Below, one piece after another: positions 3,001 to 64,000 of a DNA stretch of 64,000 bases; position 1 is the stretch's first letter, and every line of letters begins with the position of its first letter. A model generated the notes under the pieces. It had not been told where the DNA came from. It made no database searches and saw only the letters and a program-made list of their open reading frames with translations. The translations under genes were made by a program, and so were the position numbers. Source of the stretch: Yuukianura sp. NJ FZ-2021 (Eukaryota). Where the stretch lies: positions 12,214,001-12,278,000 of the forward strand of contig CM102290.1 of NCBI GenBank assembly GCA_046563655.1, read 5' to 3'.

Positions 3001-6000
3001 ACTTGTCCTTCATCTCAATAATGTAGCCTAAAGTAATTAAATTAGTATCATTATTGGTTAAATTATTGTTAAGTTAAATTTTTCCGTAATTTCCTAGAAA
3101 TAGTTGCTTACCTGTAATAGGTGATCCGCCATCTTTCTCTGGCACATCCCATTTCAGCTGCACAAAGTCGCGGTCGTAATCAGCGATTTCGGGCTGAGAG
3201 GGAGCTCCTGGGGCATCTACAAAAAAAACGTTATAACTCCATATGTCTTGCATTTTATTCCCCTCTGAAGAAAAAATAAGCTAAAGAAGCTAAATTTTTA
3301 TCAGAAATTACGAACCGAATGGATTCTTGGCCACAATTCCTTGCGTAGTTGTAAGCGGATCGGATTTTCCTTGTTTCTGTAACAAGCAGACGACAATTGA
3401 GTATTTCAATTTCAATGTTTAATTCCTAATCTGAATTTTATACAACATTTCTAACAATTAATTCCTTACATTGACAGCCGAAACCCTGAATTTGTATTTA
3501 TGACCAGGCGTGAGACCATCAACGTTAAAACTCGTCGTTTTACCGTCAGTCTCTCCGGCTGGAACCCAGCGTCCAGTGGACTCATCCATTCGTTCAATTT
3601 GGTAGTTGCTTATAGGCGCTCCACCATCTGTAAAAGCAGCAGCACATAATAGTAAGTACATAAGTTAACTTACAGTACTGCCGAACACTAAATGCTTGGC
3701 TACGCACCGTCAGCTGGTGGTGACCAATTCAGTTTGCATCCCTGAGCCGTAACGTCTGAAACCTTAAGTCCGGTAGGTGGTTCTGGCCTGTCCAAGACAA
3801 TGACCTCGACGTCAGCCATGTCAGTACCGTTGACATTAGTAGCAGTGATGGTGTATGTTCCAGAGTCACCACGTGAAGCAAGCTTGACGCTCAATTTTGT
3901 ATTGTAGCTCTCATGCTGAACTTTGAGGCCATCACCAGACTTGAGCTCCTTGCCCTTCAACTTCCACACAGCTAAAAAAAAAAAACAAAAACAGAAATTG
4001 TTATTTCTTATTATTACTTTTTCGAATATAATCTTGTTTTCTTGTTCAATGAATTAAATTTTACTCACTTGTTGGTTCAGGCTCTCCAGAAACTTTCACA
4101 TCGAAGTTGAAACTCTGACCCGCTTTGATTTTAATAGGAACCAAGTCAGTTCTGTCAATTTTCGGTGCCAAGTTCCTTGCTTTAGCAATTATAGGTCCAA
4201 TGCTGTCAGATTCTTCTCCTGGTCCAGCTTTGTTCACCGCCCTAACTCGGAACTCGTAAGGTTGGCCTTCAGTAAGCCCTGGAACCGTTGCTGAAGTCTT
4301 GTCTCCAGGTACTTCCAAAGCCTTTTCCCAATTCCCATACTTGTCTTTCTTCTCTACAATGTAAGCCGAGATAGGGTTACCACCATCTTCAGTCGGCGGA
4401 GTCCAAGCTAGGTCAACAAAATCTTTGCCCCAATCCGTAGCTTTCAGATTTCCAGGCTTCCCGGGTTCATCGTATGGGTTCTTGGCAATTATTGATTGAG
4501 CAGTAGTCAACGGTTCAGATTCTCCCTCCTTATTGACCGCAATACATCTGAACTTATACTCTTGTCCAGGAGTGAGTCCAGTGACATCAAATGTTGTTTC
4601 TGCCGAATGACCACAAGGAATCCAAATTCCATTTTCAGATTCCTTTTCCAGTTGGTAGTATTCAATTGGACAGCCGCCGTCATCTTTAGGTTTCTTCCAT
4701 TTCAGTTTACATCCAGTTTTGTGTACGTCAGATACAGATATGTCTTGTGGTGGGGTAGGTTTATCCGTTACGACGATATTTACAGTAACCGAATCTTTGC
4801 CGGAAGGATTCGAGGCAGTAATCGTGTATTGACCAGAATCTTCTCTCTTTGCAGGGCGAACAACCAGCTTGGAGTTGTATTCTACATCATCAATGGTAAC
4901 ATTCTTTCCGGCTCTCAATGGATTTCCATCGACAGTCCAAACGACAGTTGGTGGTGGCTCTCCAGTGATATCCACATCGAATTTAATTGAAGCTCCAGCG
5001 GATAAGGTGAGGTCACGCAAATTCTTCCGGTCAATCTTGGGAGCAAGAAATCTGGCTTTAGCTGTTACTGGATTTGATGCAGAAGATGGTTCAGACAGAC
5101 CAGCTTTGTTCTTTGCAATGACTCTGAAAGTATACTGCTGTCCTGGTGTGAGGCCCTTTGCCGTTCCTTTGCACTCAGGACCAAAAGTCTCCTCAACTTG
5201 TTCCCAAATCGGGCTATGCTTATCCCGTTTCTGAATAATGTAGCCAGTGATTGGACTTCCACCATCCGAAACTGGCTTTTCCCAAGCCAGATCCACAGAA
5301 TTAGGTGACCAATCCGTTGCTTCTGGTGTACCAGGCTTATCAGCCACTGAGAACGGATCTTTGGCGATAATTGGCATAAGTGTTTCCAGTGGCAGTGATT
5401 CTCCTTCCTTATTCTGAGCTTTGACTCTGAATGAGTACTCGTGTCCTTGGACCAATCCTTCTACATCCATTTCCGTATCTTTTGTCTTTCCAACTGGGAT
5501 CCAAATGCCAGCGTCCTTGTCGAACTTCTCAACGACGTAAGCTTCCAGTGGAACACCACCGCTGTCCAGAGGCTCCTTCCACTGTAATTTGCATCCGTCT
5601 TTCTTAATGTTAGAAACTTCCAGTGGTCCTTCTGGTGGCGACGGTTTTGAAACGACGACGACTTCTACCTCGGCGGAATCTTCGCCCCATTTGTTCGAAG
5701 CGACTATTCTGTAAGTTCCAGAATCCTTACGCGTTGGACTATCGTTGTAGAACTTTGTGTTGTACGGGACGTCAACTATGCGACGGTCGCCAGTTTCTAT
5801 GATTGGTTTTCCATTGAGAAGCCATTCAACTAAACCAAGGTCAATTAGCAACTTCAGACATTTTACTTCATTTAACACAAAAATTCATAAATTACTTTAA
5901 TTTCTCAGACTCACCCGTTGGAGGCGGCTCGCCAGAAACTTTGACGTCAAAGAAGAACGGCTCTCCTTCACGTACTTGAATCTTATTCAAATTCTTGCGG

Positions 6001-9000
6001 TCAATCTTTGGAGCCAGTTTTCTTGGTTTCGCTGTAATCGGCTTACTAGCTCGACTCGGTTCTCCAGGACCAGCAGCCTATGTACATACAAACAATTGAG
6101 CTTTATTTTTCAGCTTTTACTAGTAGTAATATACTACACTATATGTTATACACATAGATACTAATAGTTATACTAATTAATTTAGTTAATTACTTACGTT
6201 TTTGGCCCTAATACGAAATTCATAGGTTTGCCCTGGTTCAAGTCCTTCAGCAGTCCCTTGGCATTCATTTCCTTTGACCTCTCCTGCTTTGACCCACTTC
6301 CCACCAGGTTCCTTCTTTTCAATGATATAACCACTGATTGGATTTCCCCCGTCAGAAAGTGGTGGTTCCCAACTAAGCGTTACGTGATCCTTGTCCCAGT
6401 CCGTGGCTTCAGGAGCTCCCGGTGCTCCAGGGCAATCAAACGGATCCTTGGCAAGAATTGGTTTGTCAGTTTCAAGTGGTTCCGACTCCCCTTCGTCGTT
6501 AACCGCCGTAACCCGGAACTTGTACTCTTGACCCGGTTGAAGATTCTTTACCACCATCTTTGGTTCCTTGACACGTCCGATAGGAATCCAGCGTCCAGTT
6601 TCTGGATCTAATTTTGATACTTGATAGTCAATTGGAAGTCCTCCGTTGTCGTCTGGTGGAGTCCATTCCAATGTGCATCCTTCCTTGTGAATATCGGACA
6701 CTTTGAGGGCTTTTGGTTTCGTGGGTTTGTCCAACACGGTAACCTTGGCCACTGCCTCGTCATCCCCAGCCAAGTTTCTGATTCTGAGCATGTAATTACC
6801 GCCATGAGCTCGTGTGGCTTTCGTAATAACCAACTTTGTTCTGTAGTCGTCATTGTCGATAGCTACATTTCCGCCAGCTTTTAGTTCTTCAGTTCCAAAC
6901 AGCCAGGTTTTCGTCGGAGGAGCTAAAAGAATAAACAAATTGATAAAACCCATGCCATGATAATTCTATAGTTCCACTCACGTTCTCCTTTGACTTTGCA
7001 GTCAAACCGGATAGTTTGCCCAGCCTTGACTGTCAAATCCTTAATGTTGCTTCGGTCAATGTGTGGAACCTGTCGTCTAGATTTAGCCGTTACTGAATCA
7101 GAAGCATCCGATGGCTTCCCGGGTCCCGCTGCCTGTCCACACGATAGAATCAGGCTTCAATTTAATTCTTACAAAAGTTGATTATCAATCCAGAAGAGAC
7201 TCACATTCTTGGCGCGTACGCGAAACTGATATGTCATGCCTTCTATGAGATCAGGTACACGAGCTTCGCACTTATCTCCAACAGTTTCCATAGCCGTTTG
7301 CCACTTTGTCGAATGCTCGTCTTTCTCTGTAGTGTTAGTAAGCAATAGTATTAAATCCATATAAATAAATGTCGTCACCTAAATCTGAAAACTAGACTAT
7401 TTACTTACTTTCTATAATGTAGCTTGTAATGGGAGCTCCACCGTCAGATTCCGGCGCTTGCCATTGGAGAACTACGTGGTCTACGGCATACAACAAAGGG
7501 AAAGTTTATACCAACATGTCATCCAATGGCTTTTAACTTTAGCAGAAAAGTACTTACCCTTGTCCCAGTCTTTGGCAACAGGTTTCCCCGGTTTTCCAGG
7601 CTATTAAAAAACAGTCAACGGAAACGAAAAATTGTTAAATTCATACCATATTTTGAAAATTTGTATTGAAGAAAATGTCACCTCATCATAGGGATTCTTG
7701 GCGAGTGTTTCTTTTTCGGTTTCCAAAGGCTCTGATTCCCCTTGGTCATTCTATGAAACAACATAAGGAATATGTATTATCTATTTGGTGGGAAAACAAA
7801 ATGAGCCAAAAAAAAATTTCTTGAAAGTTTCAAACTAGATCCAAAATTTTTCGGATTCGGTAAAGAAATTTTTTTTGCCAAATTTTTCGGAAACTTTTTC
7901 TTCCCTTTCACTTTTTTTTCGACGTTTTAAGGCATTTTCTATTTCAAAATACTAAATACTTACCACAGCGACGACCTTGAATTGGTACGATTTTCCTTCA
8001 TTCAAGCCCGTCACATCCATAGTCGTTCCTTTGGTGACACCAACAGGTACCCATCGTCCAGAGGAAGTGTCCATTCGAGATACTTGGTAACTTATGGGTT
8101 GACCACCGCCTCCATCATCCAGAGGTGCTTTCCATTCCAGCTTAGCTCCATCAGCTTTCACATCAGACACTTTCAAAGGGCCTTGTGGAGCACTCGGTTT
8201 TCCAAGAACAGTCAGATCCAAGTCCACGACATCCTTTCCAGAATCATTGACTGCCATAACAGTGTAAATACCCGTATCGCTTCGAGTAGCTTTGATAAGA
8301 ATAAATGTTGTTTTGTAGTCTTCACTTTCAGTTTTGATACGGTCGTTCTTGATTGGTGCATCTTTGAAAGTCCAGGTACATTTAGGAGCCGGTTCACCTT
8401 TGACATCAGCTTCCAGCGACAGCATTTCACCAACACGAATCACCTTCTTTGCTAAATTCTTGCGGTCAATGTATGGTGCCAAGTGACGGGGCTTCGTCAC
8501 GACTGTTCGCGAAGGATCCGATGGCTCAGAATTTCCAGCCTTATTTACAGCAATTACTCGAAATTCGTATTCTTTTCCTTCTTCGACTGCTGTAACTCTG
8601 GCTTTTGGAGTAGAACCTGGAGCAGTGGCGACATCCATCCAGTTCCTTGCTCCCTTCTCTTTCATCTGCACAGTGTATTTCTGAATAGGAGCGCCACCAT
8701 CTGATGTAGGTGGAGTCCACTCCAATTCAACAAAATCCTTGTCCCAATCAGTAGCCTGCGGTCTTCCAGGTTTTCCAGGTTCATCAAACGGATTCTTGGC
8801 AATGATTGGTTTGTCTGCCTCCAAGTCATCGGAACTTCCTTCCTTATTGATAGCTTTAACCCGAAACTTATATTGCTTCCCTTCCTGTAACCCGGCGACA
8901 TTGAACTCCAAATCGTCTGGACCAGCGTCGACCTTGCCGCAAGGAATCCATTGACCTGTATTGGGATCCAATTTGGAAATTTCGTAAGCTTCTACTGGAC

Positions 9001-15000: not shown

Positions 15001-18000
15001 GTTTGCGTTTCCTCCCTTCCTTCAGAACTTGAATCCTCTTGTCAGGCGTGAGAGGCTCGCCGTCACGAAACCACTTGACCTCCCCATCTTCCTCGTCAAG
15101 TTCACACTCCATGCAAACGTAGTCCTTCTCCGTCGCATGAACACTCATGAGTGCCTTTGTAAACTTGAAGGGGTACTCGGAGACTTTCACGGTCGTCTTC
15201 GTTCGGGTTTCTTGCTTGTCAATCTTACAAGTGTATTCTCCAATGTGAAAGTTCTTTGCTTTCTTGATTGTGAGACGACAGTTTCCCGTAAGGTCCTTGT
15301 TGATTTCAAAGTCTTGCTTTCCATCCTCGATTGGTTTTTCACCTTTGAACCAAGTTACCATAGCCCTTCCGCTGCTGACGGTACATTCGAGCTCAATTTC
15401 CCTGTTGAAGTACCCGTCGTACTTCTTGTTCAGCTGACGAATAAACGTGTATGACGGGTCAGGCTCTGCGAGTTGACAAGATCAATGTATATAAGGTCAT
15501 CCAGATACTACGTCATAAATCCAGATACTACGTCATCATAAAACTTACCTTCGACAGTGAGAAATGCTTCACACTTGACAGCATTGATTTCGCAAGTGTA
15601 TTTTCCGGCATCCTCCACCTTCGGATTGAATATTGTCAGCTGATATATGTCGTTCTCAACCTTCATCTTGTATTTCGAGCCCGCGAATAGTTCCTAAACA
15701 AAAGACAGGCGACATATCAGTAGTCTACTCAAATAACATTACAACACCTTACATTGTATTCTCATCATTTATATAAATCGGTCAATAAGTTAAGACTAGT
15801 GATAGTGAACATAAATAACCGCTTATGGTTTCAGTAGTATCGAGTATGAGTTGACTTACGTCTTTGCGACAGTACCACTTGACCTTGCAGTTAGCCTTGG
15901 AGAACACAGTTTCAAACATGACCTTCTTGTCCTTCCCTTCTTTGCAGTACTGGTCCACGAGGGGCTTGAGAAACGAATCCGTCTTCTACGATCGTCACAA
16001 GTAAATAAACAATCAATTAGATCCAAAGATAATCAATACTGTCGAACTTCACGAACTACCAACATTTAGAGCGAACTGAAGCAAACTGCGCCTCACCTTT
16101 TGTGTATCCCTTACAATATAACATTATCAATTGGAATTTAAAAACTGATTCAATTTACTTGTTTACTTTTACTAAAAAGTGACAGACAGAAGAGAAGAAG
16201 ACACGTTTTGTAAACGTATGAAAGACAGTAAACAAAGAAGAATTTTCCAAATCTTGAAAGGAAAGGACACAAAATTCAGTTTTTAAAAAATTTGAATTTG
16301 GCGCCAGAAGAAAGAGACAGAGTGAGAAGAAGTGTGTGTTTTAAAATGGTGGTTGTGGTTTTTGTGTTTTTGGTTTTCAAATACAAAAGTGCATGAGACG
16401 CCATTTAAAAAAACTGTGACAGTTGCATTTGCCAAGCACACGACACAAAAACGTTACAAAAAGCAAAACGTTCTCAAACACTACAAAAACGTTTTCAAAA
16501 ACACTTAAAAAGTTAAAACGTCGGCACAAGAGCAGGCGGAAGCGAGCCATGGTTAGTAATACACAGAATTTGTAGTAAACATTTGGCGGTAAAATTTAAA
16601 TAAACGAAACGAGACGAGTTTTTAGGACAATAGTGTAATTTTAAGGACAATAAACGACTTCTAACACTAGAGTAGTATAGAGACAACCTCATCTTTTGCA
16701 AATGGCTGCAGAATAGGCCAGTCTGGAATAAGTTCCGCCAAGGAGCATCGCCTCGAAGCGTTTTTGTCCACTGGCTATACAAAAAGTTGAGCAATTGACG
16801 TTCACAAAAAAGTGTCAGCGCAAAAACGTTTTTCTTTGTCTACAAAAAATATGTTTCTAAAAAAAGTCAACTACTCTACTAACCGGTTGGCGGCGAAACT
16901 TTTTTTAAACTTTCAAATACTTTTGAAAGTAGAAAAATATGGCGGCACTAAAATTTGAATCACGCTCCACTCAACGTCACACGGAAAACCTGAATTAGAA
17001 AAAGCCTGCTCTTTTCTTTGGCGTAGAAAAAACTACGTAATTGATTAACCTTCTTCCTGGAAAATGGGATGAGCGTTGGCCAGTCAGGAATCACTTCCGA
17101 CAAGGCGGATGGCTTCTTCGTCTTCGATAGGAGATCCTGATGTTAAGGGCCGGTTAACCCTTGAGTTAACCCATTTGAGTAACCCTTGGGTTCATCCATA
17201 CACGAGTACCCTTGGGTTCACACTCTTCGACAACCCTTAGCTTATCTAACGTACCCGTCTTGCCTGGTTCATTTATCTAATCCCTCGGGTTAACAAGAAA
17301 CTATTGCCATTAACCCGTATAACGGCACCCCTATCCGCCACGATATTTATCTTAGGGTTAACTCGATTAACCCTTCAATTCTTAGCCCGTAACGTTAACC
17401 TGTACTACAAGAAACTCGAATTGAAAAACATAAGTTACTGGGTTATCCGAGCCTGGGAACCCGTGGGTGTTCGGATTTGGATAACCCTTGAGTTATGGAT
17501 TAACCCATATGGGTTACTACTCGGTAGGGGAAATTTTAAAAATTGAAGAAAAAAAGAAAAATGCTAAACAAAAATCAAAAATGTAGAAAAAGTAGCAGTC
17601 ACTCAAAGGCGAGCAGAATCTTAATTTGGAGTCAAAAAATTCTCATAAATTGGAACCACTCTCAAATTCAAAGTGCTAAAATACTAATTAAGTAACTGCA
17701 AAATCAAAATCAAATGTATTTCAAAGCTTGAGGGTTAAGGTGGGTCAGATTTTAGGAAGTGTTTCCGCAGAGGTCAAAAAAGTGAACAAGTGAAATAGCA
17801 TGCACAAAATTGTATCAAATGTAATTCGAAATTCTGAAATTGCAATAAAATGAAATCAGATGAAAAATTGTAGTAGTGTCCCCCCTCCAATATTTTTTTT
17901 AAACTTTTCAATTGTCCTTTGTCTCGTAAAGTGTAATGGCTTTCAAAATTTTAGAAAACAAGTCTAGAGATAAAGTTGCTTGCCCAGGTTCTTAAAGAAT

Positions 18001-21000
18001 TAATGTAGTCCCAACCTATGTGAACTACTGACTCCAAACTACGCAGCTCCTTTGAGCGACTGTTAACACGTTAACGTTTCCGTTTTTTTTTTTCTCAAAA
18101 ATTTTAAGATTTAAAATTTTAACTTTAACTTTTGAATGACGGTGGGGTGGGACGCGGAAAGTGGGTCTACCTGAGCTCGGTTCCACTTGGATGTTGACTG
18201 GTTGCTTTGCGGCTGAGCCGGATCTTCAGCAGTAGTCTGTTGAGTCCAAGTTTCATTTTTTTGAAATTTCATTTTTTTTTCGCTCAAAATGAATTTGAAA
18301 CAGGAGAAAGTGAGGGAGGAAAGAGAAAGTGACCTTTGACCTGAACCTAGGCAAGAACTTGTCAACTCCACAATTGGTTAGGTTAGCCTAACCCTAATCT
18401 AAGCCAAAGTGGCTCAAAATTGACAGAGAAAGGAAGATACTTGAAAAAAGAGACAGTGACAGGAAGAAGAAGACGCGCTAGAGCGACTATAGAGCAACGC
18501 GCTCGTGCAGATTTCACAGAATGCCGCCAATTCTAAACTTGATGGATATTTTCGCTAATCTCTCGTAAATGTGACTAAAATTTCGAGTCTATCAAAATTC
18601 AAAAATTTCCGCCTTACCTTCTCAATGTGTTTGAGCTTAGGTTTATCCTCCTTTGGCGTTTCTTTCAATTCGCCCCAGTCAGGATCCCCTTGGTCTTTTC
18701 CCCATTTGGCATATTTTCGTTTTTTGAGCATAGCACGAAAGTCCATTCCACTCGCGTCTGAAAATCATGTCAAAATATTCCAAAAATTTTGAAATCCGAA
18801 TTCAAAATTTTGAAAATTGATCGTCGTAGATTATTGGAACAATTCGAACCAGAGACGTAGAAAGTGAGTTCCGCTGAGTCTTCGCCATGGATGTTGCTAA
18901 TGACAATTTTATATTGACCTTCGTCGTTCGGTTTGACCTTGCGGATGGCCAGAGTGATGAGGTTATTGTCACCATCCGTCAGGAACTTGTATCGACCGCC
19001 TTCTACAATTTCCGTCATACCCTACGCAAACGTAACAAGATTTGAATTAGGCTAATCAGTTTCATTAGGTTATGTTTTTTATGTTAAGTTAAGTTGAGAT
19101 TGTAATTACCTTGTAAAACCGAAATGTTGGACAAGGGTCACCCTCGATTTGTACTGTAATGTAGGCGGTTTGATCTAAACGTCAAAAAAAGTTAGGTGTT
19201 TGTTAGTGTGTTTTTCATTTCATGTGATTTTAGGTTAGGCTAAAGAAATCAATTGATTGTTGATTCCATTACCTTCAATTCCACTGTAGTTTTCCTGAAC
19301 ATCAACAATTTGTGGTGGGCCTGGAGATCCCGACGCTTGCAGCGGTGTCGATGGCTTGTCAATTCGATCCTCCAGATCAGCGACGCTGGGCCTGCGCACT
19401 TCCGTGCTTGGTCTCCTCCTCTATTACGTTCAAAGAAACATTAGCTAACTCTCATTTCCCGCCTGCTTTTTGGCGGGTTATTTCAAAATACAAAACAAAC
19501 AATATGTATACATGCAGTTTTTAGATTATCCAAAAAAGTAACAATCCAAAATATCGATCGCATGTAGAACAAAAGCTGTTTAGCTCATTCCATTTCAAGC
19601 TGAATTTAACAGTCTACCGAAGCAAAGAGTAGGCTAGTGGGCAGCGATGGCTCCATTTCCAAAAATTTTGCATTCTATTTCGTTCCATTCTCAAATTCCA
19701 AAAAAGACACAATTAGAAAAACGTATAATCACACAGATACAAAACAGAGCTGGAACGACTTCACGGAAATAATAAATACATAGAAAAATACAAAGGCGGC
19801 AGTGTACAATCAAATTCTGTTCAATGAAAAATTAAGCTTTCGCATAACCTGCGACAATGCATCTGTCAAAAAACTGAAATTTAAAAAAAATGGTTTTTGT
19901 AAACCGGACTTCACGAATTAGCATTTTTTTTAAACTGTACAGGACGAATTAGCAAAGATTTTCTTAAAAAACTGTACATGAAGAATTGCGAATATTTTTT
20001 CAAAGACTGAATAACGAGGACGAGGACTTTGTACAGAAGTTGGACATGGACTAGAGACTGGACTCTGTTCAAAATTTTCAAAATTTCCTTTCTTTCTGTT
20101 TAGAAAATTAGTCTAACCTCTTTGCCCTGCTGGTCCACCGACAGCAGTTGACCTGGACGCGGACCTTTCTTCTGATTTTAGAATAAGAAAGTCGTAACAA
20201 ATTCAATTAATAAATTAAAATTTTTTAAATTTTCACATTTTTCTGGCTCGCCTTCTACCCGTCAATTTTTCGCGTCGCGAGTTGAATTTACGCTGAGGTC
20301 GTGAAGGGTAAAGGAATGTTGCAAAACGAAAAAAAAATTAAAAAGTCAAGATCAGGCTTTGAGCAGGAGTGGGTTATTTTCAAAAAAACGAAAAAAGAAG
20401 AAAAACATGAGAGTTGGCCGAGCTCGGTTTACATGGTTGGTAAAGCGGCATGTCGACTGTTTTTTGGAATTTTAAAATTAAAAAAACTAGAAAACTAGAA
20501 AACCGTAAAACTTGTATGAGTTCACTCCGTAAAATCTTGGAGGAAATGCCCTTTGACCCACCTTAACATCATCAAGTTCCCCAGGGCGAAGCCTTCCCTT
20601 CTGAACAAGGAAATCAAAACAGAAATTGTCCAAGTTGTAGCTCAAGTGTAGTGCAATTTGTAATATTTTGGCATATTTGGTCATAATTTGTGTTTGGTAT
20701 TTTCAAAACATGAGGTGGTAAAAGCTAGAGTGGTTTGATTTGAAGCCTAGGCCGGGCCATAGTCTCAATAACCAAGGTTCCTTGACAACGGAATTGTATT
20801 CCCTACAACATGTTGTCTAATAACTCAGGATTTTCAAAAATTTTGCTTCAAACAACTTTTAGCACCAATTTTGTGTTTATACATTTTCCCCATTTTTTTT
20901 TCAAACTTTGAAACTGGAAATCGCATAGGAATAAAATAAAAGTTGAAAAAAAATTCAAAAATTGTCATAGAAATAATGGTGTAGTTTAACCCGTTTGGTT

Positions 21001-24000
21001 TTTGAAAATTTTGCCAAAAAAATGAAAAAAAAAACCCGAGTTATTGGACAACCTGGTGTAGAAAAAACATGTTCTTTGTTTACGAACCTTGTCAATAACT
21101 GTTGTAAGTGGAATAGCGGATGCTGCGAAGTGTTTGAATTTTTGGCGGGAATTGATGGGGGGAATGTGAGCTCATTAAAAATGGGGCACAGTGAGACAGA
21201 GATAGAAAAGATAGATGCAGGGAGTAAAATGCAAGGTGTGGCAACTGGAGTGACCTCCAACAGGTCAATGCAGTTAATCAAGTTCATATCTCAAAAAGTC
21301 ATCGTTAATCTTTTAGCATCACCACCAATTCAAAGTCATATTTGGTGGGAAATTTCAAAAAGTTCGGACCTTGCCGCCTCACCTTCTTATCATCCAAAAC
21401 CTCCCCGGGACGCAGTTTTCTACGCTCCTAATAATTGAGACAGTAGACAAAACAAAATCATTTTTCAAAAAAAAGTGAGGAAGCAAAAATTCATTGGACA
21501 AAAGCCAAAACGTTTTTAGATCAAAAAAATATTGGCAAAATTAATATTTCCAAAATTCTAAAAATCTTTTCTTCAAAACTTTAAAAATTCCGCTCAAAAT
21601 TTGTTCAAAACAAAACTTCAACAGTACAGTTGACCTTGCCTACCCCTTTCCCTGTCCCAAAAATTGAAAATGAAATTGAATTTCAACTTTTTCAAAAAAA
21701 GGAAACCCGGAAACGCGCAAGTCGCTAAATTTTCAAAAACCCCGCCCAAAATTTTGAAACTTACCAGTAACGCCGGAACACTTTTTTGGCTCATGATTTA
21801 AAATCGAAAATTGGGATAACTTTTGAAACTAATTTCCGCAGTTTTTCCTGGTTGCGAAAACTTACACTTTGGGAGAAGTACAAGCACTTTTTTCAGGAAA
21901 TTGTTCACGGAGATAATGTTGTTTGAATTTTGTAACTGTTTTTGAAAAAGCGACAACTAGCACAAGAGTTTACCTCGTCAGTGATGATGAGTGATGGTCT
22001 CCGGCCCTCCGTCTCGGGCGGAATGAGTGACCCACGTCGAGACGGTGGACCACTTCCGGGACCCAAAGAAGATTTGCGGGGTTCAGGCGTCTTTTCCCGG
22101 GAAACTTCAAGCTTGGGTGCAACAAGAGACGATTTGGATCCTGCAGCCTGCAAGAGACATAGAATAAGAAAAAATCAACGCGCATGTGCAGAGTCAAATT
22201 CTTATTTTTAGGTACGACGGCGCCGCTATCAACATTGGCGGGAGGTATACAAATAGAAGGAACGACAGTGCTGGGGGAGAGCTAAGTATTGACCCAAGGT
22301 CGTATTGGTTCATTCCCTTCCGTAGGCCAAACAGTGGCCAAAATCAACAGAGACAAAACTACTGCTGCTAAGACCGAAAAGCTTTAAAACTTCGCGCGAT
22401 GGATTTTAATGAACACTCGACAAGAAACAACTGCTCACTTTTCAAAAAAAAAATTAAGAAACAGGGCTAATTACTACTGCTACCTGGAACAACCATAAAT
22501 CGTCTTTTGCACAAATCTACTTTTAAAATCTCCCACCCCCACACGCAACATAACACACAATACCACAAAGAACGTACAGAAAAAAATGGCGGAAATTTCT
22601 TGTTTTAAAAATTCAAAATACGGAAGAGACTTTCAAAGTCAAAATAGAGAAAACGCCCTAAGCGCTTTGGGATTTCAATTTCCGCCAAAAAAAAATACTG
22701 TTCATACAAAATTTGAGTAAAAAATTATGAAAATCTAAGAAAATTTTTTCAAAATTCAAAAAATACCTTAGTGTCTGGTGTTTCAATTTTTGGTGGCTCA
22801 ATGACCTTGGGCTGAGCATTGACAACTTTTGGTTTTTCATCTTCCCTTGGTGGAACCACAATGGTCTGCATTGGTTTTTTAAGTTCCAAATTCAAAAGAG
22901 ACAGGACAACAAAACAAAAATGGACGTCACAACTTTTCAAAACAATTTGAAAACATTTCTAGAAAAAATTTCTTGTGGAAAAAAGAAAAAGTTTTCTAAA
23001 AAATTGAAAAATTTTGAAAGCAGGTCAAAGGTTAGAAGCAAAGTGGAGCATTGGAAATGAATATTTTTAGAAAACGAGAAGAAAAAATAACATTTTTTGC
23101 AAATTGTACCTCTGCTGGCTTGGCCTTCTCAGGTTCTGGTTTCTGTAAATCCAAAATGAAATTTATGAAGTAAACGTTGCGCCAAGATTTTTTTTTTAAA
23201 GGGAGGGAAATTTTGAAATTTATGAGAATTGCAGGATAGGGCTGTTTATTCATTCGGCCGACAGAGTGATGGGATAAGGTGTGTAAAATGTCATTGCCAA
23301 AATTCCACCATTTTTTACTTTTAAGTTTCCACCTGTCCTCCTGCAGGGCCAAACTATTTTTAAAACAAAAGATTTCGAGGCAGAAGGAGGGAAATTTGAA
23401 ACTGAAATTGGAGTGCTTACCAACTCGGGCTGCTTTTTGGCGGGAGTTTTGACCTCGTCGGCCGGTTTGACCTTTTTCTCTGCGTCTTGTAACTTCGGCC
23501 CACCGTTCGTCTCGGGTAGTCTCTGTAAAGAAAGTATGAGAAAAGTTAGACTCTCGTGCCAGTATTCAGCGAAAACCAATACGTAGCGCGAAAAAAAATT
23601 TGAAATTCAACACAGGGATTTGTTTGTGTTAGACGCGTATTTTAACAGGACGTAAATGACCTTCGACCTTTTGACTTAGATTTACAATCAGCATAAGTTT
23701 TCTGGCACTTACCATTCCAGGTAGCACTTCTTGTTCCTCTTCATCCGGTGGCGTTTTTACTTCGGGTTTTTTCGGTGCTGGTTTTTTGTCTTCGGTCTTT
23801 TTCGGTTCGGGCTTCTTTTCCTCAGGTTTCTTCGGTTCTGGTTTCTTTTCCTCTACTTTTTTCGCCTCTGCTTTCTTTTCCTCTACTTTCTTCGCCTCTG
23901 CTTTCTTTTCCTCGACTTTCTTTTCTTCTACCTTCTTTTCCTCGACTTTCTTCGCTTCTGCTTTCTTTTCCTCCACTTTCTTTTCTTCTGCTTTCTTTTC

Positions 24001-27000
24001 TTCTACTTTCTTCGCCTCTGCTTTCTTTTCTTCTACTTTCTTTGCTTCTGCTTTCTTTTCCTCGACTTTCTTCTCCTCTGCTTTCTTTTCCTCTACTTTC
24101 TTTTCCTCGACTTTTTTCTTTTCTTCCTTCTTTTCCTCCTCCTTTTTCTCCTCTACTTTTTGCTTTTCTGAAAATTTAAAAATTTATAAAGTTTCAGTTT
24201 CACTAAAAATGCTTGACAGACGAATCATAGGACGCAGGTTTACCTTTGACTACAAGTTCTCCCTCTGACTCATTCTGCCCGAATTCGTTCTTGACAATGA
24301 CTTTGTATGTCCCAGAAAACTCCTTCTTGCAGTTGGAAATTGTGAGCCTGGCAGTTTTCCCATCAAAAGTCATCTTTGTCTCCCGAGTTTCTGTGATTGT
24401 CGTCGTATTTCTAGATTAACCGACAAAAGAAATGTTATGTAACTTATACAACAGTCAGTGCGGAGCAAAGGGAAATCCGGAAAATTCGTCTCCTTACTTG
24501 TACCACGTCACGGTCACTTTCTTGTTCATGGTAGTCAACTCAATGTACATTTCGGCACTCTTTCCCTCTTCCACAGTCTGAAAGAACAAGTAATTAAATA
24601 AATTATTGAAATATTGTTTACATTTTGTGTAAATGATCAGTAAGCCAATTCCTTACCGTGTACTTGAGCCCTTGAGCGATTTGTGGTCCTTGACCTTGTG
24701 GCTTGTCTTCTGGAATTTCTGTGACCTCGACAACTTGCGAGGTCGCTTCACCCTTTTCGTTTTTGGCAACAAATTTGTAGGAGCCCTTATCCGCATTTGT
24801 CGCATCGTTAATCTCCAACTGAATCTTGTATTCTCCCTAAATCACAAAATTCAAAAACCACGAACGATTCAAAATTTTGAAATTAAATATTCTTATTTTT
24901 AGGAATTTTGAAATCGATTGGGATACCTTCTCGGTTTGTTCAACTTTTGTGACTCTGCGATGATCTTCTTTGACAACAGTTTTTTCTTTGTACCACTCAA
25001 CTTGTGGTGGTGCAGTACATCTTACGCGACACTCAATTATAACAGTCTTCTTCTTTTCTACTCGAATTACGCGTGGTTTTTCACGAATGACCGGCGCAAC
25101 TGAAAAAAAATTGGGACAGATTTTTGTAAAAATTCAAAATTTATACAAAATTACTAAAGCGACTCACTTTCGATATTCAATGTCAAATTGGCGTTGATCT
25201 CTCCCATTTCATTCTTGATATTGCACTTGTAGAGACCACTTTCTTCAGGTTGAGGATCCTGCAGACGTTTAAAAAAAACATGCGTATTGTACACCAATCA
25301 CGATTCGCTTCTGTGTCTTCAAAAACCATTTTTTGGTATGTACGAACCTTAATTTCGAGACGGATGATGTAAATTTCCTTCTCTTGGGTCATGTTAATTG
25401 TAAATTTGGCAGTTGACGATACTTCTTTACCGTCGCACGTCCATTTGAAACTGGGCTTCGGATCGGCCTTGACCTTGCATTCCATGAAGATCAATTTTCC
25501 GTTTTGTTCCGAAACAATTCTCGGTTTCTCAGCAAATGTCGGAGCTTGACCAGTCGGTTCCGGTTCAGCTTCGATATTTAAGTTGAGGTTGGCATTGGAT
25601 TCCCCATGGGGATTCTCCACATGACATCGATAAGTTCCACCATCCTTTCCACTTGGATCTTTTAGCTCCAAGATGAGGTCAAAGAGGTCATCACCAGCAG
25701 AAACAGTTCGCATAGCCACCTTGTCAGAAACTTCCACTTTGGTCGGCCCTCTGTACCAAGTGACCTTGGGTTCTGGATTGGCTTTACAGCGACATCGCAT
25801 TGTGATCAGCGATCCAGTAGCATTCGGTGTAATTTTTGGTTTTTCCACAAAAGTAGGTGCAATCCCACCTTCCTCTCCGCCTGGAAATGAAGAAAAATCC
25901 AAAGGAACTTGGAAATTTAGTACGGAGACTTAAGGGGTCAATGACCTCGCAATTTGACACTGTGACCTCATCCTCGCATGCGCCAACTCTAACAACTGAT
26001 CAACAGATGAGGGAAGTCCATTTCTACTCCAAATCCACTGTCATCCAGTTATCCAGTATGAGAACTAAAAACTTTTAAATGCACATTGACATTGTCACCC
26101 AACGAAGACACTTTGACCTTGAGAAGGTCACAGAACATTCTACTGAGACCAACTCCATTGAAAAAGACTGACAGAAAAAGTGAGTTGAAAAGGACTTGTG
26201 ACAACAGTGTTTTGTGAGGACATGTAGTACGGCTTAACCCTAAAAAATCAATCAGTTGAGCAGAACTGCTCATTGGCTAACTTGATTTTTTTGAAATGCT
26301 CGAAGAGCGGGAGAAGCTGTTCAATGACTCTCTCCGGAAGGACATGTTAAGTTATAGACAGTACAGATCATGCGCCCACAACACACGAAAAGCACATGCG
26401 CAGAGGACGGTTAGTTCCACGAGTCCATGTTTGTGAATATACGGTTCTACCTTGGAAGTTGAGTGCAATATTGGCATTACTCTCCCCCAGTGCATTCACG
26501 GCGTTGCAGCGCCAGTTCCCACCATCGGATATGGCTGGATCACGAATTTCAAGGCACAGGAGATACGTATGTTTTGAAAGTTCCTTGCGACTCATTTTGA
26601 TCCGATCGTTGAGGTCAATGGCCTTTGCTCCTTGGAACCACTTGATTTCTGGTAGTGGTTCTGCTTCAAGTATGCACTCCATCACTAGCAAGTCTCCTTT
26701 TTGTTTAATCGATGGCTTCTTCGGGAACCGCGGCGGTTTGCTATCCGCAATCCTGACAAAGACAAAAAAAAGTTTAGTTTTCCTTTTTAAACTTTCGCAC
26801 CGAAAATTAAAAATGGCTCTCTCACTTGAATTTCCCGCCGCCTTCGAAATTGAGGTGAACGACAGCCGTGGCCTCCCCTTCGGAGTTCCTAGCCAAAGCT
26901 TTGTACTCCCCCTCGTCATCCCCTTCTGCTTTGAGCACTTTGAGTTTGGAAACATAGTAAACGTCTTTGGAATCTTGCTTGGTCAATGACGCTTGGAACC

Positions 27001-57857: not shown

Positions 57858-60791
57858 TCATCGTGTAGAACTTTCAACGCATTCTCCTCCGCGGCAAATC
57901 TGAATTATAAAAAACGGCTCCAAATTAACTTTTGAATTGAATATTTAAACTAATTCAATTAATTTTTCAAAACCCAACAAATAAAAATTTTTTAACAGTA
58001 CTTTTCCTTTGGCACAGTCAGTTCCTTCTAGCGCCGCATGCGTAGTAGTAGCGTGTGTCGTATTTGCACAGTACAACATTCCACAAATTGCCTAAAGTTA
58101 CAGTAAAACCAACATTGTTAAAATAAAGATTAATCATATTAGAAATGTTAAAAAGTGTTTAAAATGTGGAAATAAAACATTTACTGTCAAAATTGTTACG
58201 CATGCGCAGATCCCTTACGTTAAATGGTTTGGCTGTGGTCATGTAGGGCGTAAATTTCTTGCCAAGAGCCAAATGACATTGTTTTGTGGCATCAAACTTT
58301 TGACCCGGCAGTTTGCCATCTTTGTAGTCGATTTCAGTACTTTCTCGACTAGTTGTAGACAGGCACACAGGAGGCGTGGCTTGTCCACCGCTACCACGCA
58401 GATCAGGTGACCCCGATTTCATAAAGTCTTTAAGATTCTTACTAGAACAGGTTGACCAGGTCACCTTCCCTGTCCCTGTCGTAGGACTAAAACGAGAAAA
58501 AAAAGTCTTAATATAAATTTTTTTGGAATCATTTCTTCCATGACCTCTGACCTCATCAGAAACTTGTTGGCATCACAGGACTTGCATGTACCAGTGCCAT
58601 CGTGGTCCATTCCCACACTGTGACCCAGCTCATGAGCAATCACGTAAACGGATCCAAGTTGCAGCGCTTCACTGTTCAAAAAAAATTAACACAAAATTCG
58701 ACACTTAAATCCTAATTTTTCCAGGAAGTTCAAATTTTTTTGAAAATTTACCTCACGGAGCAACTGAAGTAGCGGTAGCACATAGTTCCCGCCCATGCCA
58801 AACCCGCTGTAAGACTCGACCCGCCTTCTTTCAAATCCGATCCAGTGAGAAGCAAACCGTGGTCCCACAGTGCGTTGTTTTTGTTCAAACTTCCCGCGTA
58901 TTCGCAAAAAGACGTCAAGTAGTCCTTGGCACTCTTTCCATTCTTCTTCATTTTGCTGGGCAATTTAGTCATCACTTCCAAGTGACATAACTTGAACATC
59001 ATTTCCGTTCCAAGCGATTTGTGCTCATAAATAATGTCCACCTAAAGTCAAATAGTTCAAAGATCAACCGAAATTTAACACATTAATCAATGATTACTTA
59101 AAATTTAGTAACTAGAACATACTGAATTGATAACAGTCAGGATGTACTCCTTGATTTTGGCATCAGTGTCTTTGGGGTAGCGGATTTTCATTTCATCATA
59201 AAACTCGGGATCCGTGAAAACAGCAATTTCCACAACAGACTTTTTTCCGGAAGTGCTCGCCTTTGTAGTTGCCTTCTTTGCGGAACTGCCCGTTTTCGCG
59301 GTGGGTTTCTTGGCCAACGGTTCTAATGCTATGACATAATCTTGTTCAGCTTGGATCTCCACGACGAGCGGAATGGCCTCTGCTTTTGTATGGTTCATCA
59401 CGTCCAATTCCCCTCGTTTGACAAGTTCGTTCATCGCCTCTTCCTCGGCAGCTTTTGCGTCTTCAGCTGCTTGTCTTTCCGCTTCTTTCAGTTTCTCCTT
59501 CGGTACATGCAGTTCTGTCAACAAAACGTATTTATTACTATGTATATTACCATATATGTAAAGCATAAGTTACGGTCAGTGGTGAGGTCAAGTCTAGCCA
59601 GGTCATCTGCCTCTGATGCTCTTCGAATGCGATGATGTGATTTCTTTGTTGTGGGATTCTCTGTTTCCGGAAGTGGCTCAATCAACCAACCTCCGTCACT
59701 CGTCATAATCAACCCACTCTACAAAAAAAAAAACGAGCACTTTCATTCCATTTCCAAGATTCAAACTACTTCCGCCTATTTTCACTAAAAGCTCAACTTT
59801 TTTTAACAAATGTGAAAATCCGGTATGCGGAAGGAAATGCAAAATTTTTAGCCAATTTTCACAAGTCGAAAATTCCGACGATTTCAAACACTGATTTTCT
59901 TGCGTTTAGTTACTAAATTGTTTTTGGACTTACAACTTGACCTTGTTCACCACACATGGAAATGGCCACTTTGGAATCTGGATCGGACTTGACGACGCCT
60001 GCGTACAGACAATCCACGGTGACGTTCAAATGTTCCCGGACAACCGTGTCGCCATCTTTGATCACAATTCTGGAACAGCAGTGGACCAAAATAAAATAAA
60101 ATAGAATGCAAAATTTAATTGATAAAGCATTACTTGAAGTCGGATGTGGTCAGTGACCTCGAGGTCACATGGATTTCCATACTTTCATTTTCAAATCTCC
60201 CGCCATTTATTTCGAAAATATGGTAGTCTCCTTCTCCCTTCGCAACGTTTACAGCTCTCCGCCTTCTTGGAGTCAAAAAGTTAACTTCCACAATTTCTCC
60301 GGGTGGGTCTGCTCCGTCCCACGAAAAACAATTTCAATTGTGTAATTCTTTTATAATAAATTTGAATTTTACTTCATGCTTCCTTATAAACTTACAATTT
60401 GACGTTCCAGAAATTACGGAGTTTGATTCCCTATAAACGACTGCACTTATCACACCCTGGTTACAAAGAAGCAAAAAGTCTGATTCAAAAATTGAAAAGA
60501 GTTCAGTGATTTTAAAAAACACAACAAGACCAGTCTACGATGACACTCCTGAAAATTTTTTCTGGAATTTTCTGTTCGTAAACTCTATAAAAGCAGTCGG
60601 ACCTAACAATTTGAATTGACGCTACAAAAAAAATCAACGAAATCGTGAATTTTGGCTGATAACAAAACTTAAAACTAAAATTTCAAAATTTCAACAATAT
60701 ACAAACTGACCTGTTGGATTTGACTCTGCTGTCCTAGTAGAAAGCAAATGAAAATCCAAGTTGTAGCAGAAACTATGGTTCTCATTCCCAT
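57858..60791 (-). CDS. Secreted ADAMTS-like M12B metalloprotease, copy 1 (signal, prodomain, catalytic, Cys-rich; no TSP1 repeats)
   Basis: Signal-like MGMRTIVSATTWIFICFLL and prodomain (CLYAG..., VAISMC, LIEPL). Catalytic motifs WDHGLLLTG.DL, GLAWAGTMC and zinc motif HELGHSVGMDHD with Met-turn. Then LPGQKFDATKQC and ALEGTDCAKGKICRGGECV before the stop. Confidence 0.88.
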
Positions 60792-61760
60792 ATTTTCCGC
60801 AAGGCTTTCAACAAATCCGTGACCTTATGACCCCACACTCACCAACTTTTTTTTAAAAAGCGGTTTTCCTGGAACTTTTAGCTCCTCTTGCGTTTGAGTT
60901 CCAAGTATAAATGCAATGTAAAGTATCATGGTTAAACCTCGGTAAAAGAGGAACAATCGGGATCCAATTATTTGCAAAAGTGATACTGGATCCTGTCCAG
61001 TGTCCCCCGCCCCCAAAACCCATTGTTGTGTCCCCTCCATATCAATTTCATCCCCACTGTGGACACTGTGGACTCCCTCTCATTAGACTCACGTTATTTC
61101 CCATTTCCTTTGCAAAATAACCTGTAGTGGCAGTTCACGTTAACTTTCCAATGCAACTTGTGGAATTCGGCACATGCAAAGATCCAGGGGCAATCGGGGT
61201 AAGTTAACCCTACCAGGGTCAGCCTTCCATTTCGTGTTTAAAAATAACAAAAACCAACTCAAATTGGTCACTTCCCTCGAAATTCAAATGTTTCAGCTTC
61301 AAGATCATACATCACACTTCAAACCAAACCACAAACGAGAGGTCATGCACGCCATGTGTCAGCATTTTGTCCAATGCATGCTGGAACACACCATCACTTT
61401 AAAATACTAAATCAATCAAAAAAAACTGGTCAAAATCATACAGTAAAGATGGACGCTATTCAAAGCTATCGGTTAGCCTTCAATAACTTTCAAAAAGTGT
61501 CACAAAAATTCATAAATTGCAACAAAGAATCAAATACAAGCAAAGAAAAATTAAAATACGAAGCCGAGTTTAGTGGTTTTTACAATGGTCACAAAAATTT
61601 TGAAATTACGAGGTGTTTAAAAAACGACACATTATTGTAATATATAGAAAATTTTGTTTTGAAATCAGTTTGTAAATGGAATCTCAGATTTTTCATAATT
61701 TCACTTTGTGTGTTCCCTTTTCTCATAAACAAAATAAACTTTTGGATGTATTAATCAATT

Positions 61761-64000
61761 TCATTTTTTCACGCAATTTCCTCCGCGGCAAATCTGAATT
61801 TCAAAAATAAACGATTCCAAATTAATTTTCAAATACAATATTGACAATAATTCAAATAATTTTTCGAAACACAAAATGAAATTTTTTAACCGTACTTTTC
61901 CTTTGGCACAGTCAGTCCCTTCAAGCGCCGCATGACTACTAATAGCATGTGTCGTATTTGCACAGTACAACATTCCACAAATTGCCTAAAGTTGCGGCAA
62001 AACCAACATGATGCTAACATTGTTAAAAGAAACAAAATGTTAAAAGATGCTTACGTTATATGGTGTGGATGTGGTTATGTAAGGCGTAAATTTTTTGCCA
62101 TGAGAAAACTCGCATTGCTTTGTGGCGTCAAACTTTTGACCCGGCAGTTTTCCATTTTTGTAATCAATTTCAGTACTTTCTCGACTAGTTTTAGACAGAC
62201 ACACAGGAGGCGTGGCATGTTTACCGAGCATGTCTGGTGACCCCGATTTCATAAAGTCTTTCAGATTCTTGCTAGAACATTTTGACCAAGTCACCTTTCC
62301 CGTACCGGTCGTAGGACTAAGATAAAAAAAATTTAAACCATTCTGAATTCACATTTGTCATGAGCGTGACCTCTGACCTCATCAGATACTTCTCGGCATC
62401 GCAGGATTTGCATGTACCTTCGCCATCGTGGTCTATTCCCAGACCGTGCCCTAGCTCATGAGCCATCACGTAAACGGATCCAAGCTCAACCGCTTCACTG
62501 TTCAAAAAGTAACATAAAATTTGACACAAATTCCACTTTTTCCAGGAAGTTCAACGTAATTTTTTGAAAATCTACCTGATGGAGCAACTTAAGTAACGCA
62601 AGCACATAGTTCCCGCCCATGCCAAACCTGCAAGCATATTCGACCCGTCTTCTTTCAAATCCGATCCAGTGAGCAGGAGACCATGGTCCCACAGTGCGTT
62701 GTTTTTGTTCAAACTTCCCGCGTATTCGCAAAAAGACGTCAAGTAGTCCTTGGCACTCTTTCCATTCTTCTTCATTTTACTGGGCAATTTAGTCATCACT
62801 TCCAAGTGACACAACCTGAAAATCATTTCTGTTCCAAGCGATTTGTGCTCATAAATGATGTCAACCTAAGCAAATAGGTCAAAGGTCAACCGAAATTTAA
62901 CACATTAATCAATAATTACTTAAAACTAGTTAAGTAAAACTTACTGAATTGACCACAGTCAGGACGTAGTCTTTGATTTTGGCATCAGTGCCTTTTGGGT
63001 ATCGGATTTTCATTTCATTATAAAACTCGGGATCCGTAAAAACGGCAATTTCGATGACAGACTTTTTTCCGGAAGTGCTCGCTTTTGAAGTTGCCTTCTT
63101 TCCGGAACTGCCCGAGTTCTTGGCCAACGGTTCCAGTGCTATGACAGAATCCTGTTCAGCCGTGACGAGCGGAATGACCTCTGCTTTTGTATGGTTCATC
63201 ACGTCCAATTGCCCTTGTTTAACAAGTTCGTTCATCGCCTCTTCCTCGGCAGCTTTTGCGTCTTCGGCTGCTTGTCGTTTCGCCTCCTTCAGTTTCTCCT
63301 GCGGTACATGCAGTTCTGTGATCAAAAGTTATTTATTACTATGCACGGCAGCATTTATGTAAAGCATAAGTTACGGTCAGTGGACAGGTCATTTGCCCCT
63401 GCTGCTCTCCGAATGCGATGATGTGATTTCTTTGTTGTGGGATTCTCTGTTTCCGGAAGTGGCTCAATCAACCAACCTCCGTCACTCGTCATAATCAACC
63501 CACTCTACAAAAACGACCAATTTCATTCAATTTCCAAGATCTACTCAAACTACTCCCGCCAATCTTCGCTCGACTTTTTTTTAGGAAATGCACAAATCCA
63601 GTACGCGGAAAGAAATGTAAAATTTTTAGTCAATTCTTAAAAGTCCAAAATTCCACGGAATTCGGAAACGGATTTTCTTGCGACGGTGTAATAAAACGTA
63701 TCTGGACTTACAACTTGACCTTGTTCACCACACATGGAAATGGCCACTTTGGAATCTGGATCGGACTTGACGACGCCTGCGTACAGACAATCCACGGTGA
63801 CGTTCAAATGTTCCCGGACAACCGTGTCGCCATCTTTGATCACAATTCTGGAACAGCATTGGACCAAAATAGAATAGAATAGAATGCAAAATTTAATTGG
63901 TAAAGCATTACTTGAAGTCAGATGTAGTCAGTGACCTCGAGGTCACATGGATTTCCATACTTTCATTTTCACATCTCCCGCCATTTATTTCAAAAATATG
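61761..64000 (-). CDS. ADAMTS-like M12B metalloprotease, tandem copy 2; 5' end beyond the right edge
   Basis: Same exon structure and high identity to copy 1. Zinc motif HELGHGLGIDHD; ends ICRGGNCVKK*. Confidence 0.88.

Follow-up and report, generated by a model that had tools for sequence, protein, structure and literature searches.

Two small exons in an intron of the projectin gene of Yuukianura sp. probably encode optional copies of a conserved arthropod linker motif

Projectin/twitchin is a giant thick-filament protein of arthropods with known isoform diversity in its PEVK region. Here we describe two exons of 87 nucleotides (nt), A and B, that lie in an intron of the projectin gene of Yuukianura sp. 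NJ FZ-2021 and that probably serve as optional cassettes for a conserved linear motif. The window (that is, the whole stretch of DNA analysed) comprises 64,000 nt (GenBank assembly GCA_046563655.1, contig CM102290.1, positions 12,214,001 to 12,278,000 of the forward strand) and carries most of the gene on its minus strand, where colinear tblastn chains run from approximately 29.4 kb to base 1 with matches to Timema cristinae Twitchin, Drosophila sechellia GM26811 and the projectin-like proteins of Diaphorina, Rhopalosiphum and Plutella. The layout recovered by tblastn (N-terminal Ig domains, PEVK, NTCS-1, then further Igs and Fn-Fn-Ig super-repeats) follows the order published for insect projectin, namely N-terminal Igs, PEVK, NTCS-1 and six Igs (PMC3835035), and the window ends at base 1 inside the gene, ahead of the region for the kinase domain resembling myosin light-chain kinase (MLCK). 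The features on which the analysis turns are as follows.

23629-24183, minus strand: K/E/V-rich repeat open reading frame (ORF), PEVK-like (ORF list, tblastn)
21974-22120, minus strand: NTCS-1 (tblastn, ORF list)
18618-18757, minus strand: constitutive Ig9-Ig10 linker exon, 140 nt, ending ...KLKHIEK (phase-0 donor at 18617/18616; homology)
15986-18617, minus strand: intron between the linker exon and Ig10, 2632 nt (homology with four reference proteins)
17050-17136, minus strand: exon A (copy 1), 87 nt, phase 0-0, an AG/GT-bounded ORF (cag/GAT...AAG/gttaat) with KKPS
16688-16774, minus strand: exon B (copy 2), 87 nt, phase 0-0, an AG/GT-bounded ORF (tatag/CCA...GAG/gttgtc) with RRCSL
15860-15985, minus strand: first Ig10 exon, KTDSFLKPL... 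(phase-0 acceptor at 15985)

All junctions of the linker exon, A, B and Ig10 are in phase 0. The linker exon follows Ig9 (that is, the first Ig after NTCS-1) and carries the sequence DFRAML, which is nearly invariant in 101 linker matches; skipping both A and B yields a 47-residue Ig9-Ig10 linker, as in published gene models. Neither exon contains a stop codon, the intron between them measures 275 nt, and ATG is absent from both ORFs (that of exon B opens at the TAG of its own acceptor), so that the peptides could be translated only through splicing to upstream coding exons. In a single BLASTP comparison A and B share 10 of 20 residues (E=3e-8), and none of 200 dinucleotide-preserving shuffles (mean 37.3, standard deviation 3.9, maximum 49) reached 67, the top local protein score obtained when the upstream part of the intron is compared with its downstream part. 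The back-translated IPDWP pattern has two sites only in the 64 kb, those of A and B, with 0.17 expected. Between A and B the synonymous divergence (dS) is approximately 0.75-1 and the ratio of nonsynonymous to synonymous divergence (dN/dS) approximately 0.3; the 18-codon core has a dS of approximately 1 and a dN/dS of 0.33, and identity falls to 28% in the 60 nt flanking each side. The likeness of the two exons has therefore been kept by their protein sequence, and the duplication is an old one.

A relative is represented by an 8.8-kb metagenome contig (L001), in which tblastn gives protein identities of 100% for the linker exon, 96% for NTCS-1 and 95% for Ig10; the intron is approximately 40% identical in a global alignment, and the neighbouring constitutive exons have reached saturation at synonymous sites (dS above 2). 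Both exons appear in this intron as islands of similarity detected by blastn. The island of exon A (L001 5327-5410; 76% over 96 nt) has indels of 2 and 1 nt that leave an 84-nt exon with an ATCAG/ acceptor and an AAG/GTTA donor, and that of exon B (5770-5856, 87 nt; 79% over 129 nt) includes both splice sites; AG and G/GTT are preserved at both. The lengths are neutral to the reading frame, whether the exons are included or skipped, in the window (87/87 nt) and in L001 (84/87 nt). Compared with L001, A has a dN/dS of 0.08 over 24 codons and B one of 0.23 over 29, and exon B shows synonymous changes at 8 of 20 sites compared with 64 of 78 in the constitutive neighbours (rough Fisher p=4e-4), a reduction often seen in regulated exons. 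Purifying selection acts on the protein sequence of both A and B, with splice sites and frame conserved. Since frame, splice sites and low dN/dS survive in an intron of approximately 40% identity, the sequence comparison indicates that A and B are real coding exons. The initial annotation had placed two duplicated, equal-length, phase-0 exons after Ig9 and taken them to be hidden from gene models; their coordinates, splice ends and peptides were all reproduced, the duplication is upheld by the BLASTP and shuffle results, and the comparative evidence supports genuine exons omitted by gene models.

The two peptides belong to a module with the pattern [RK][RK]xS-LAE-x-IPDWP-x-L. Scoring a profile of A and B against 1.84 billion representative proteins gave 30 matches at E<=1e-3 (3 of them <=1e-10), all of which are ORFs of 42-193 amino acids with RRxSLAE[VLI]IPDWP[TEV]L; in most, homology stops at a Val that corresponds to read-through of a GT donor. 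The three matches with an organism (Daphnia pulicaria, a Bombus species and Nicrophorus vespilloides) are RefSeq models named 'uncharacterized protein LOC...', each holding two motif copies. Two long cluster members (P0148 and P0150) were set aside as unrelated proteins. A scan of metagenome contigs with the alignment of the profile matches (A5) gave 125 pattern stretches and 37 confirmed loci. When the window's own exons were compared with these loci by tblastn on the strand of the motif, the linker exon was found upstream in 9 of the 37 and the Ig10 exon downstream in 10; 7 loci have both flanks and 12 at least one. Loci without a recognized projectin flank are mostly short or too diverged contigs, and in none of the 37 does the motif lie in a clearly different gene, the context of L026, L028, L032 and L035 not being placed. 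In one lineage (L024, L025 and L030) the motif shares an ORF with the next Ig domain: in L030 (692-7852) it lies inside an uninterrupted, twitchin-like ORF of 2387 amino acids in the order Igs, basic PEVK-like stretch, RRSS, RRPSLRRV, RRDS, RRPSLAEVIPDWPAL, Igs and Fn/Ig repeats, such that the IPDWP module and its cluster of RRxS sites are constitutive there, between the PEVK-like stretch and the next Ig. On the basis of this spread over loci and the position inside the giant ORF of L030, the module is best read as an old part of the twitchin linker that is encoded by separate small exons in insects. Two loci (L032 10001-10069 and L035 5549-5617) hold a motif copy directly preceded by an in-frame stop and without recognizable projectin flanks, which may be a decayed copy.

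A Pfam scan of eight of the proteins gave no family at the curated cut-off; the ESM Atlas returned no usable match for the Daphnia protein, whose model is of low confidence (predicted local distance difference test 0.41), as expected for disorder; and a search of full-text literature, printed figures not covered, turned up no relevant paper on IPDWP. A word-indexed protein search with an A/B alignment padded by intron-derived residues listed 34 candidates, none of which scored, and proteins of 3459-5000 amino acids searched with the Diaphorina linker region gave four matches, none with the motif.

A site for a basophilic kinase is a near-constant part of the module. Among 53 distinct motif copies from the loci, the proteins and the window, 44 have RRxS/T within the 10 residues before the motif, 5 have another dibasic-x-S/T, 2 have a single Arg and 2 have no site (exon A of L001 and an ORF whose beginning is cut off). 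The distance from the Ser to the core is fixed (S-L-A-E-x-IPDWP), and the RRCSL of exon B conforms, with the R-R-x-S/T-hydrophobic consensus of protein kinase A (PKA) present and conserved. That consensus is absent from exon A, in which KKPS is followed by an extra Ala (KKPSA), and from its counterpart in L001 (KKPCA), in which Cys stands in place of Ser. BLAST against homologues aligns KKPS-A-LSE to RRPS-LAE through a one-residue insertion, and because of this placement the Ser of KKPS is the residue equivalent to the Ser of RRxS; copy 1 of L020 and L036 has the same insertion with RRxS retained. Copy 1 of this lineage has, on these alignments, been shown to have lost the basophilic consensus, with IPDWPTL still under selection. 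The canonical RRxS that the initial annotation saw in exon B is thereby recognized as a hallmark of the module, and the weaker site that it assigned to exon A is indeed degenerate (KKPS here, KKPC in L001); its assignment of an Ala of exon A to the equivalent position, which follows from the gapless alignment with the Ser of RRCS, gives way to the Ser of KKPS. Judging from the consensus, the Ser would be phosphorylated by PKA or another basophilic kinase, and candidates beside PKA may include cyclic GMP-dependent protein kinase (PKG), CaMKII and projectin's own kinase. NTCS-1 already contains constitutive RRxS sites (SRRGSL and GRRPSL at 21974-22120), conserved in P0020, P0070, P0101, P0133 and P0134, so the cassette adds a site and is not the sole source of one. 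Further on, the NTCS-1 of other insects contains RRRPS..RRPSV.EL, of which RRPSV.EL resembles the RRPSLAEL of the cassette.

Several observations bear on whether A and B are optional. Six of the 101 protein matches to the linker exon run on into Ig10 (Diaphorina, Scylla, Gryllus, Apolygus, Plutella and P0075), and all six join ...KKVE[KR] straight to K[QS][DE][ST][FW]..., with DWP in none of the 101; the Timema and D. sechellia proteins make the same direct join, which brings the arthropod sequences that skip the exons to eight. Across the window and 10 loci, all 11 copy-2 exons follow an AG acceptor, are in phase 0 and end at a G/GTT donor, and they measure 78-96 nt (six of them 87 nt); GTT donors occur in 3 of the 22 homology-defined introns of the gene. 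Scored with a position weight matrix, the acceptor of exon A is weak (9th percentile of true sites, matched by 81 of 139 decoy AGs) and its donor average (41st percentile, matched by 3 of 162 decoy GTs); for exon B the acceptor is average (36th percentile, 16 of 139 decoy AGs) and the donor weak (5th percentile, 64 of 162 decoy GTs). The exons thus combine the suboptimal splice sites of cassette exons with conserved flanking intronic elements. Given the weak GTT donors, the conserved intronic elements, the skipping isoforms elsewhere and the exon-containing models, we infer with good support that inclusion of A and B is regulated and not constitutive. The including forms are RefSeq small-gene models only, and the skipping forms are the eight sequences, which come from other species. 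Alternatively, the exons could be constitutive here and missed by gene models elsewhere, such that the linker always carries the motif(s) and no splice choice exists. Strong purifying selection on both exons would suit this alternative, as would the lineage in which the motif shares the ORF of the next Ig and is constitutive in L030; however, the retention of a non-consensus GTT donor in every copy-2 exon, the presence of one weak splice site per exon in the window and the direct linker-Ig10 joins of other arthropods, two of the six looking transcript-derived (Scylla, known by its UniRef name, and P0075, a partly spliced contig), make it quite unlikely.

If A and B are optional cassettes, they might be used singly or together. 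L007 (with copy 1 degenerate), L020, L009 with L018 and L010 with L011 show the same succession of linker, copy 1, copy 2 and Ig10, and with two copies present in at least four further lineages, the duplication probably predates this genome. The Bombus RefSeq model (P0103) aligns with L010, a hymenopteran-like contig, as three separate blocks (residues 2-42 at 714-836, 73% identity; residues 40-67 at 3136-3219, 82%; residues 68-96 at 4995-5081, 93%), each bounded by AG and G/GTT and all upstream of the Ig10 exon at 6303. From these boundaries we read the model as a spliced join of three cassette exons, with both motif copies, followed by read-through of the last donor. In Ladona, a model named 'Twitchin' connects the linker exon with a homologue of the first P0103 exon. 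As the Bombus, Nicrophorus and Daphnia models carry both copies and the Ladona model joins the linker exon, the evidence favours stackable cassettes over mutually exclusive exons. A mutually exclusive pair, by which muscle type would set the choice between a PKA-sensitive module (B) and a PKA-insensitive one (A), would agree with two paralogous exons of equal length in tandem, and the loss of RR from copy 1 in this lineage only (in L001 also of the Ser), with IPDWPTL under selection, is the pattern expected of an insensitive variant. Against this, double inclusion (87+87 nt) stays in frame, the 275-nt intron imposes no steric block, a search of the intron for selector/docking pairing found only AT-rich, weak, low-quality inverted repeats, and other lineages place both copies in one model and normally retain RRxS in copy 1; we therefore regard mutual exclusion as highly unlikely. 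The splice-encoded PKA switch of the initial annotation survives in part: the hidden duplicated pair, the conserved PKA-type site on B and the degenerate A stand, mutually exclusive use is disfavoured, and the effect of PKA and the tuning by muscle type are hypothetical.

The motif exons could also represent an independent small gene, or a transcript from an internal promoter, nested inside the intron. This is how RefSeq treats them in Bombus, Nicrophorus and Daphnia, with models of 101-130 amino acids that have an initial Met and end a few codons past the read-through of the copy-2 donor. Nevertheless, neither exon ORF in the window offers an ATG, and an in-frame ATG upstream of a candidate third cassette (exon X, described below) has no counterpart in L001, in which a stop lies shortly before the acceptor and no ATG intervenes. 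All exons share the strand of projectin and are phase 0 with respect to it, the linker exon is connected in the Ladona twitchin model with a homologue of the exon that begins the Bombus protein, the giant ORF of L030 includes the motif, and read-through ends such as those of the RefSeq models are as found in partial transcripts. A nested gene accordingly has little chance of being correct. That A and B are chance ORFs, decaying pseudo-exons or pieces of repeats is barely credible, as the weak acceptor of exon A, its abutment on a repeat cluster and the lack of RNA cover of the intron in one low-share (0.06) run are outweighed by frame, splice sites and amino acids conserved in an intron of approximately 40% identity, which means that the L001 comparison already contradicts it, and by a motif that is widely conserved and found in the window in these two copies only.

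We consider it probable that A and B are real, optionally included projectin cassette exons, each encoding one copy of an old linear motif. Several points weigh against this. None of the 30 profile matches exceeds 193 amino acids, DWP occurs in none of the 7 long projectin-like proteins examined, and no full-length model containing the exons was seen among proteins of up to 5000 amino acids. Inclusion rests on models that are annotated as separate small genes and that were mapped to L010, not to the Bombus genome. Many of the loci are near-duplicates (for example, L003-L006, L008/L009 and L013/L014) and amount to approximately 6-8 independent lineages, not 37. One protein (P0086) reads through an intron of approximately 21 codons, so the cassette is absent in that species. 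Exon boundaries in the other loci were chosen from ORF ends together with AG/GT, and the splice matrix was built on 22 introns. The sole metatranscriptome run (0.06 of sampled words) has no cover over 15448-18711 and no joints, and gives no verdict either way. Finally, given the constitutive RRxS sites of NTCS-1, an extra site on a cassette need not be a switch.

The intron contains further elements that may bear on the use of the exons.

18171-18236, minus strand: candidate exon X, a third cassette, 66 nt, phase 0-0 (caacag/ACT..CAG/gtagac), ORF kept in L001
17566-17662, minus strand: conserved non-coding block approximately 430 nt upstream of exon A, 73% over 100 columns (L001 5094-5190)
17149-17520, minus strand: cluster of GGGTTAAC/AACCCTT-type direct and inverted repeats (families D1, D2 and D14)
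16307-16341, 18443-18473, 18417-18437 and 16173-16197, minus strand: CU-rich repeat, CTTCTTCTCACTCTGTCTCTTTCTTC-like (families D3 and D6)

The counterpart of exon X in L001 (approximately 4505-4579, 75 nt, TTTSAESPESAQPDTNLPSKWNRVQ) differs in length by a multiple of 3 and keeps its ORF, with corresponding acceptor and donor, despite indels; its support comes from two species. The relative position of exon X corresponds to that of the first of the three cassette exons in L010, of which it is a putative homologue by position; tblastn of that hymenopteran 'GWF' exon recovered no homologue in the window. The block at 17566-17662 contains the segments GTGGTTCCAATTT ... TTTTGACTCCAAATTAAGA ... CTTTGAGTGA and has indels that are not multiples of 3; its consensus fold reaches -1.7 kcal/mol with no covariation, a Rfam scan of the whole intron gave 0 matches, and the block may be a splicing regulatory element. 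The repeat cluster stops 13 nt upstream of the exon A acceptor and looks like a lineage-specific insertion, judged by the spacing between the conserved block and exon A (430 nt in the window versus approximately 137 nt in L001). Near each end of the intron are CU-rich repeats (TCTTCTTC..CTGTCACTGTCTCTTT), which are 91-94% identical to L001 amid diverged intron and look like putative sites for a pyrimidine-tract splicing regulator. Elsewhere in the window, the minus strand at 58100-63900 carries, according to the ORF list only, two tandem paralogous gene copies with near-identical series of ORFs (for example, 58461-59569 and 62317-63328) and HELGH-type metalloprotease motifs. The PEVK-like region at 23629-24183 is a regular repeat in this window; the Lepidoptera paper describes projectin PEVK regions as generally without a repeating pattern (PMC3835035).

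Alternative linker exons of giant sarcomeric proteins are already known; the motif described here appears to be uncurated. In vertebrate titin, the N2B, N2A and PEVK regions have splice-dependent length and PKA/PKG sites, and titin springs resemble the present case in that alternative exons and phosphorylation of disordered linkers tune the mechanics of a giant sarcomeric protein; the sequences, however, are unrelated, and titin uses a long spring segment rather than a short conserved motif. Mytilus twitchin has splice isoforms as well. DFRxxL is the actin-binding motif of smooth-muscle MLCK, and the DFRAML of the linker exon fits this pattern, such that the cassette adjoins a candidate thin-filament contact; the IPDWP module itself shows no resemblance to it, and the literature text held no paper pairing twitchin with DFRXXL. 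The alternative PEVK/NTCS-1 exons of insect projectin (Southgate and Ayme-Southgate) belong to the same gene and the same N-terminal I-band region and are likewise small, frame-preserving, disordered exons between Ig tracts, but they sit between Ig8 and Ig9 whereas A and B sit between Ig9 and Ig10, and the PEVK exons are composition-biased sequence whereas A and B hold a conserved motif; the available part of that account gives insect projectin Ig linkers of 5-46 residues and does not mention an optional Ig9-Ig10 exon (PMC3835035). For Mytilus twitchin, a review places PKA sites between Ig7 and Ig8 (D1, Ser-1075) and between Ig21 and Ig22 (D2, Ser-4316), phosphorylation of which releases catch and lowers thin-filament binding (PMC12040844). 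Here too the phospho-acceptor would lie in an N-terminal inter-Ig linker of a twitchin-family protein, and a PKA-type consensus (RRCSL) is present; the insect site differs in being on optional exons.

As cassette exons, A and B would act on a disordered linker that precedes the Ig starting (K)xESFLKPL (Ig10). Inclusion of one or both would lengthen the 47-residue linker by 29 or 58 residues, and by more if candidate exon X is real, and would add the motif (that is, dibasic-x-Ser, L-A-E-x and the invariant I-P-D-W-P-x-L). Phosphorylation of the Ser might then switch a contact of the IPDWP core, an effect that we propose by analogy only, with PKA control of Mytilus twitchin-actin binding. Arthropod muscle shows 'catch-like' tension that can be relaxed by cyclic AMP (cAMP). 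Going further, the module might correspond, in arthropods, to the catch switch of molluscs, that is, a phospho-gated tether of projectin to the thin filament or another partner, which we think unlikely in this full form. Such a tether would lie next to the DFRAML linker, would be included by splicing in slow or tonic muscles only and would be released by cAMP signalling, with octopamine as one example, and copy 1 of this lineage would be a constitutively 'on', non-phosphorylatable version. If true, this would explain the cAMP-relaxable tension.

Taken as optional projectin cassettes, the reading that we hold probable, A and B constitute a second optional unit of projectin, located in the Ig9-Ig10 linker, which is deeply conserved, absent from all long models examined and without a Pfam family, and in which a near-universal basophilic-kinase site is fused to an invariant IPDWP core. 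The RefSeq 'uncharacterized protein' models of Bombus, Nicrophorus and Daphnia would be explained as fragments of projectin transcripts. By analogy with the systems above, A and B could tune muscle behaviour, and the module offers a concrete, testable candidate for direct second-messenger action on the third filament of arthropod muscle.

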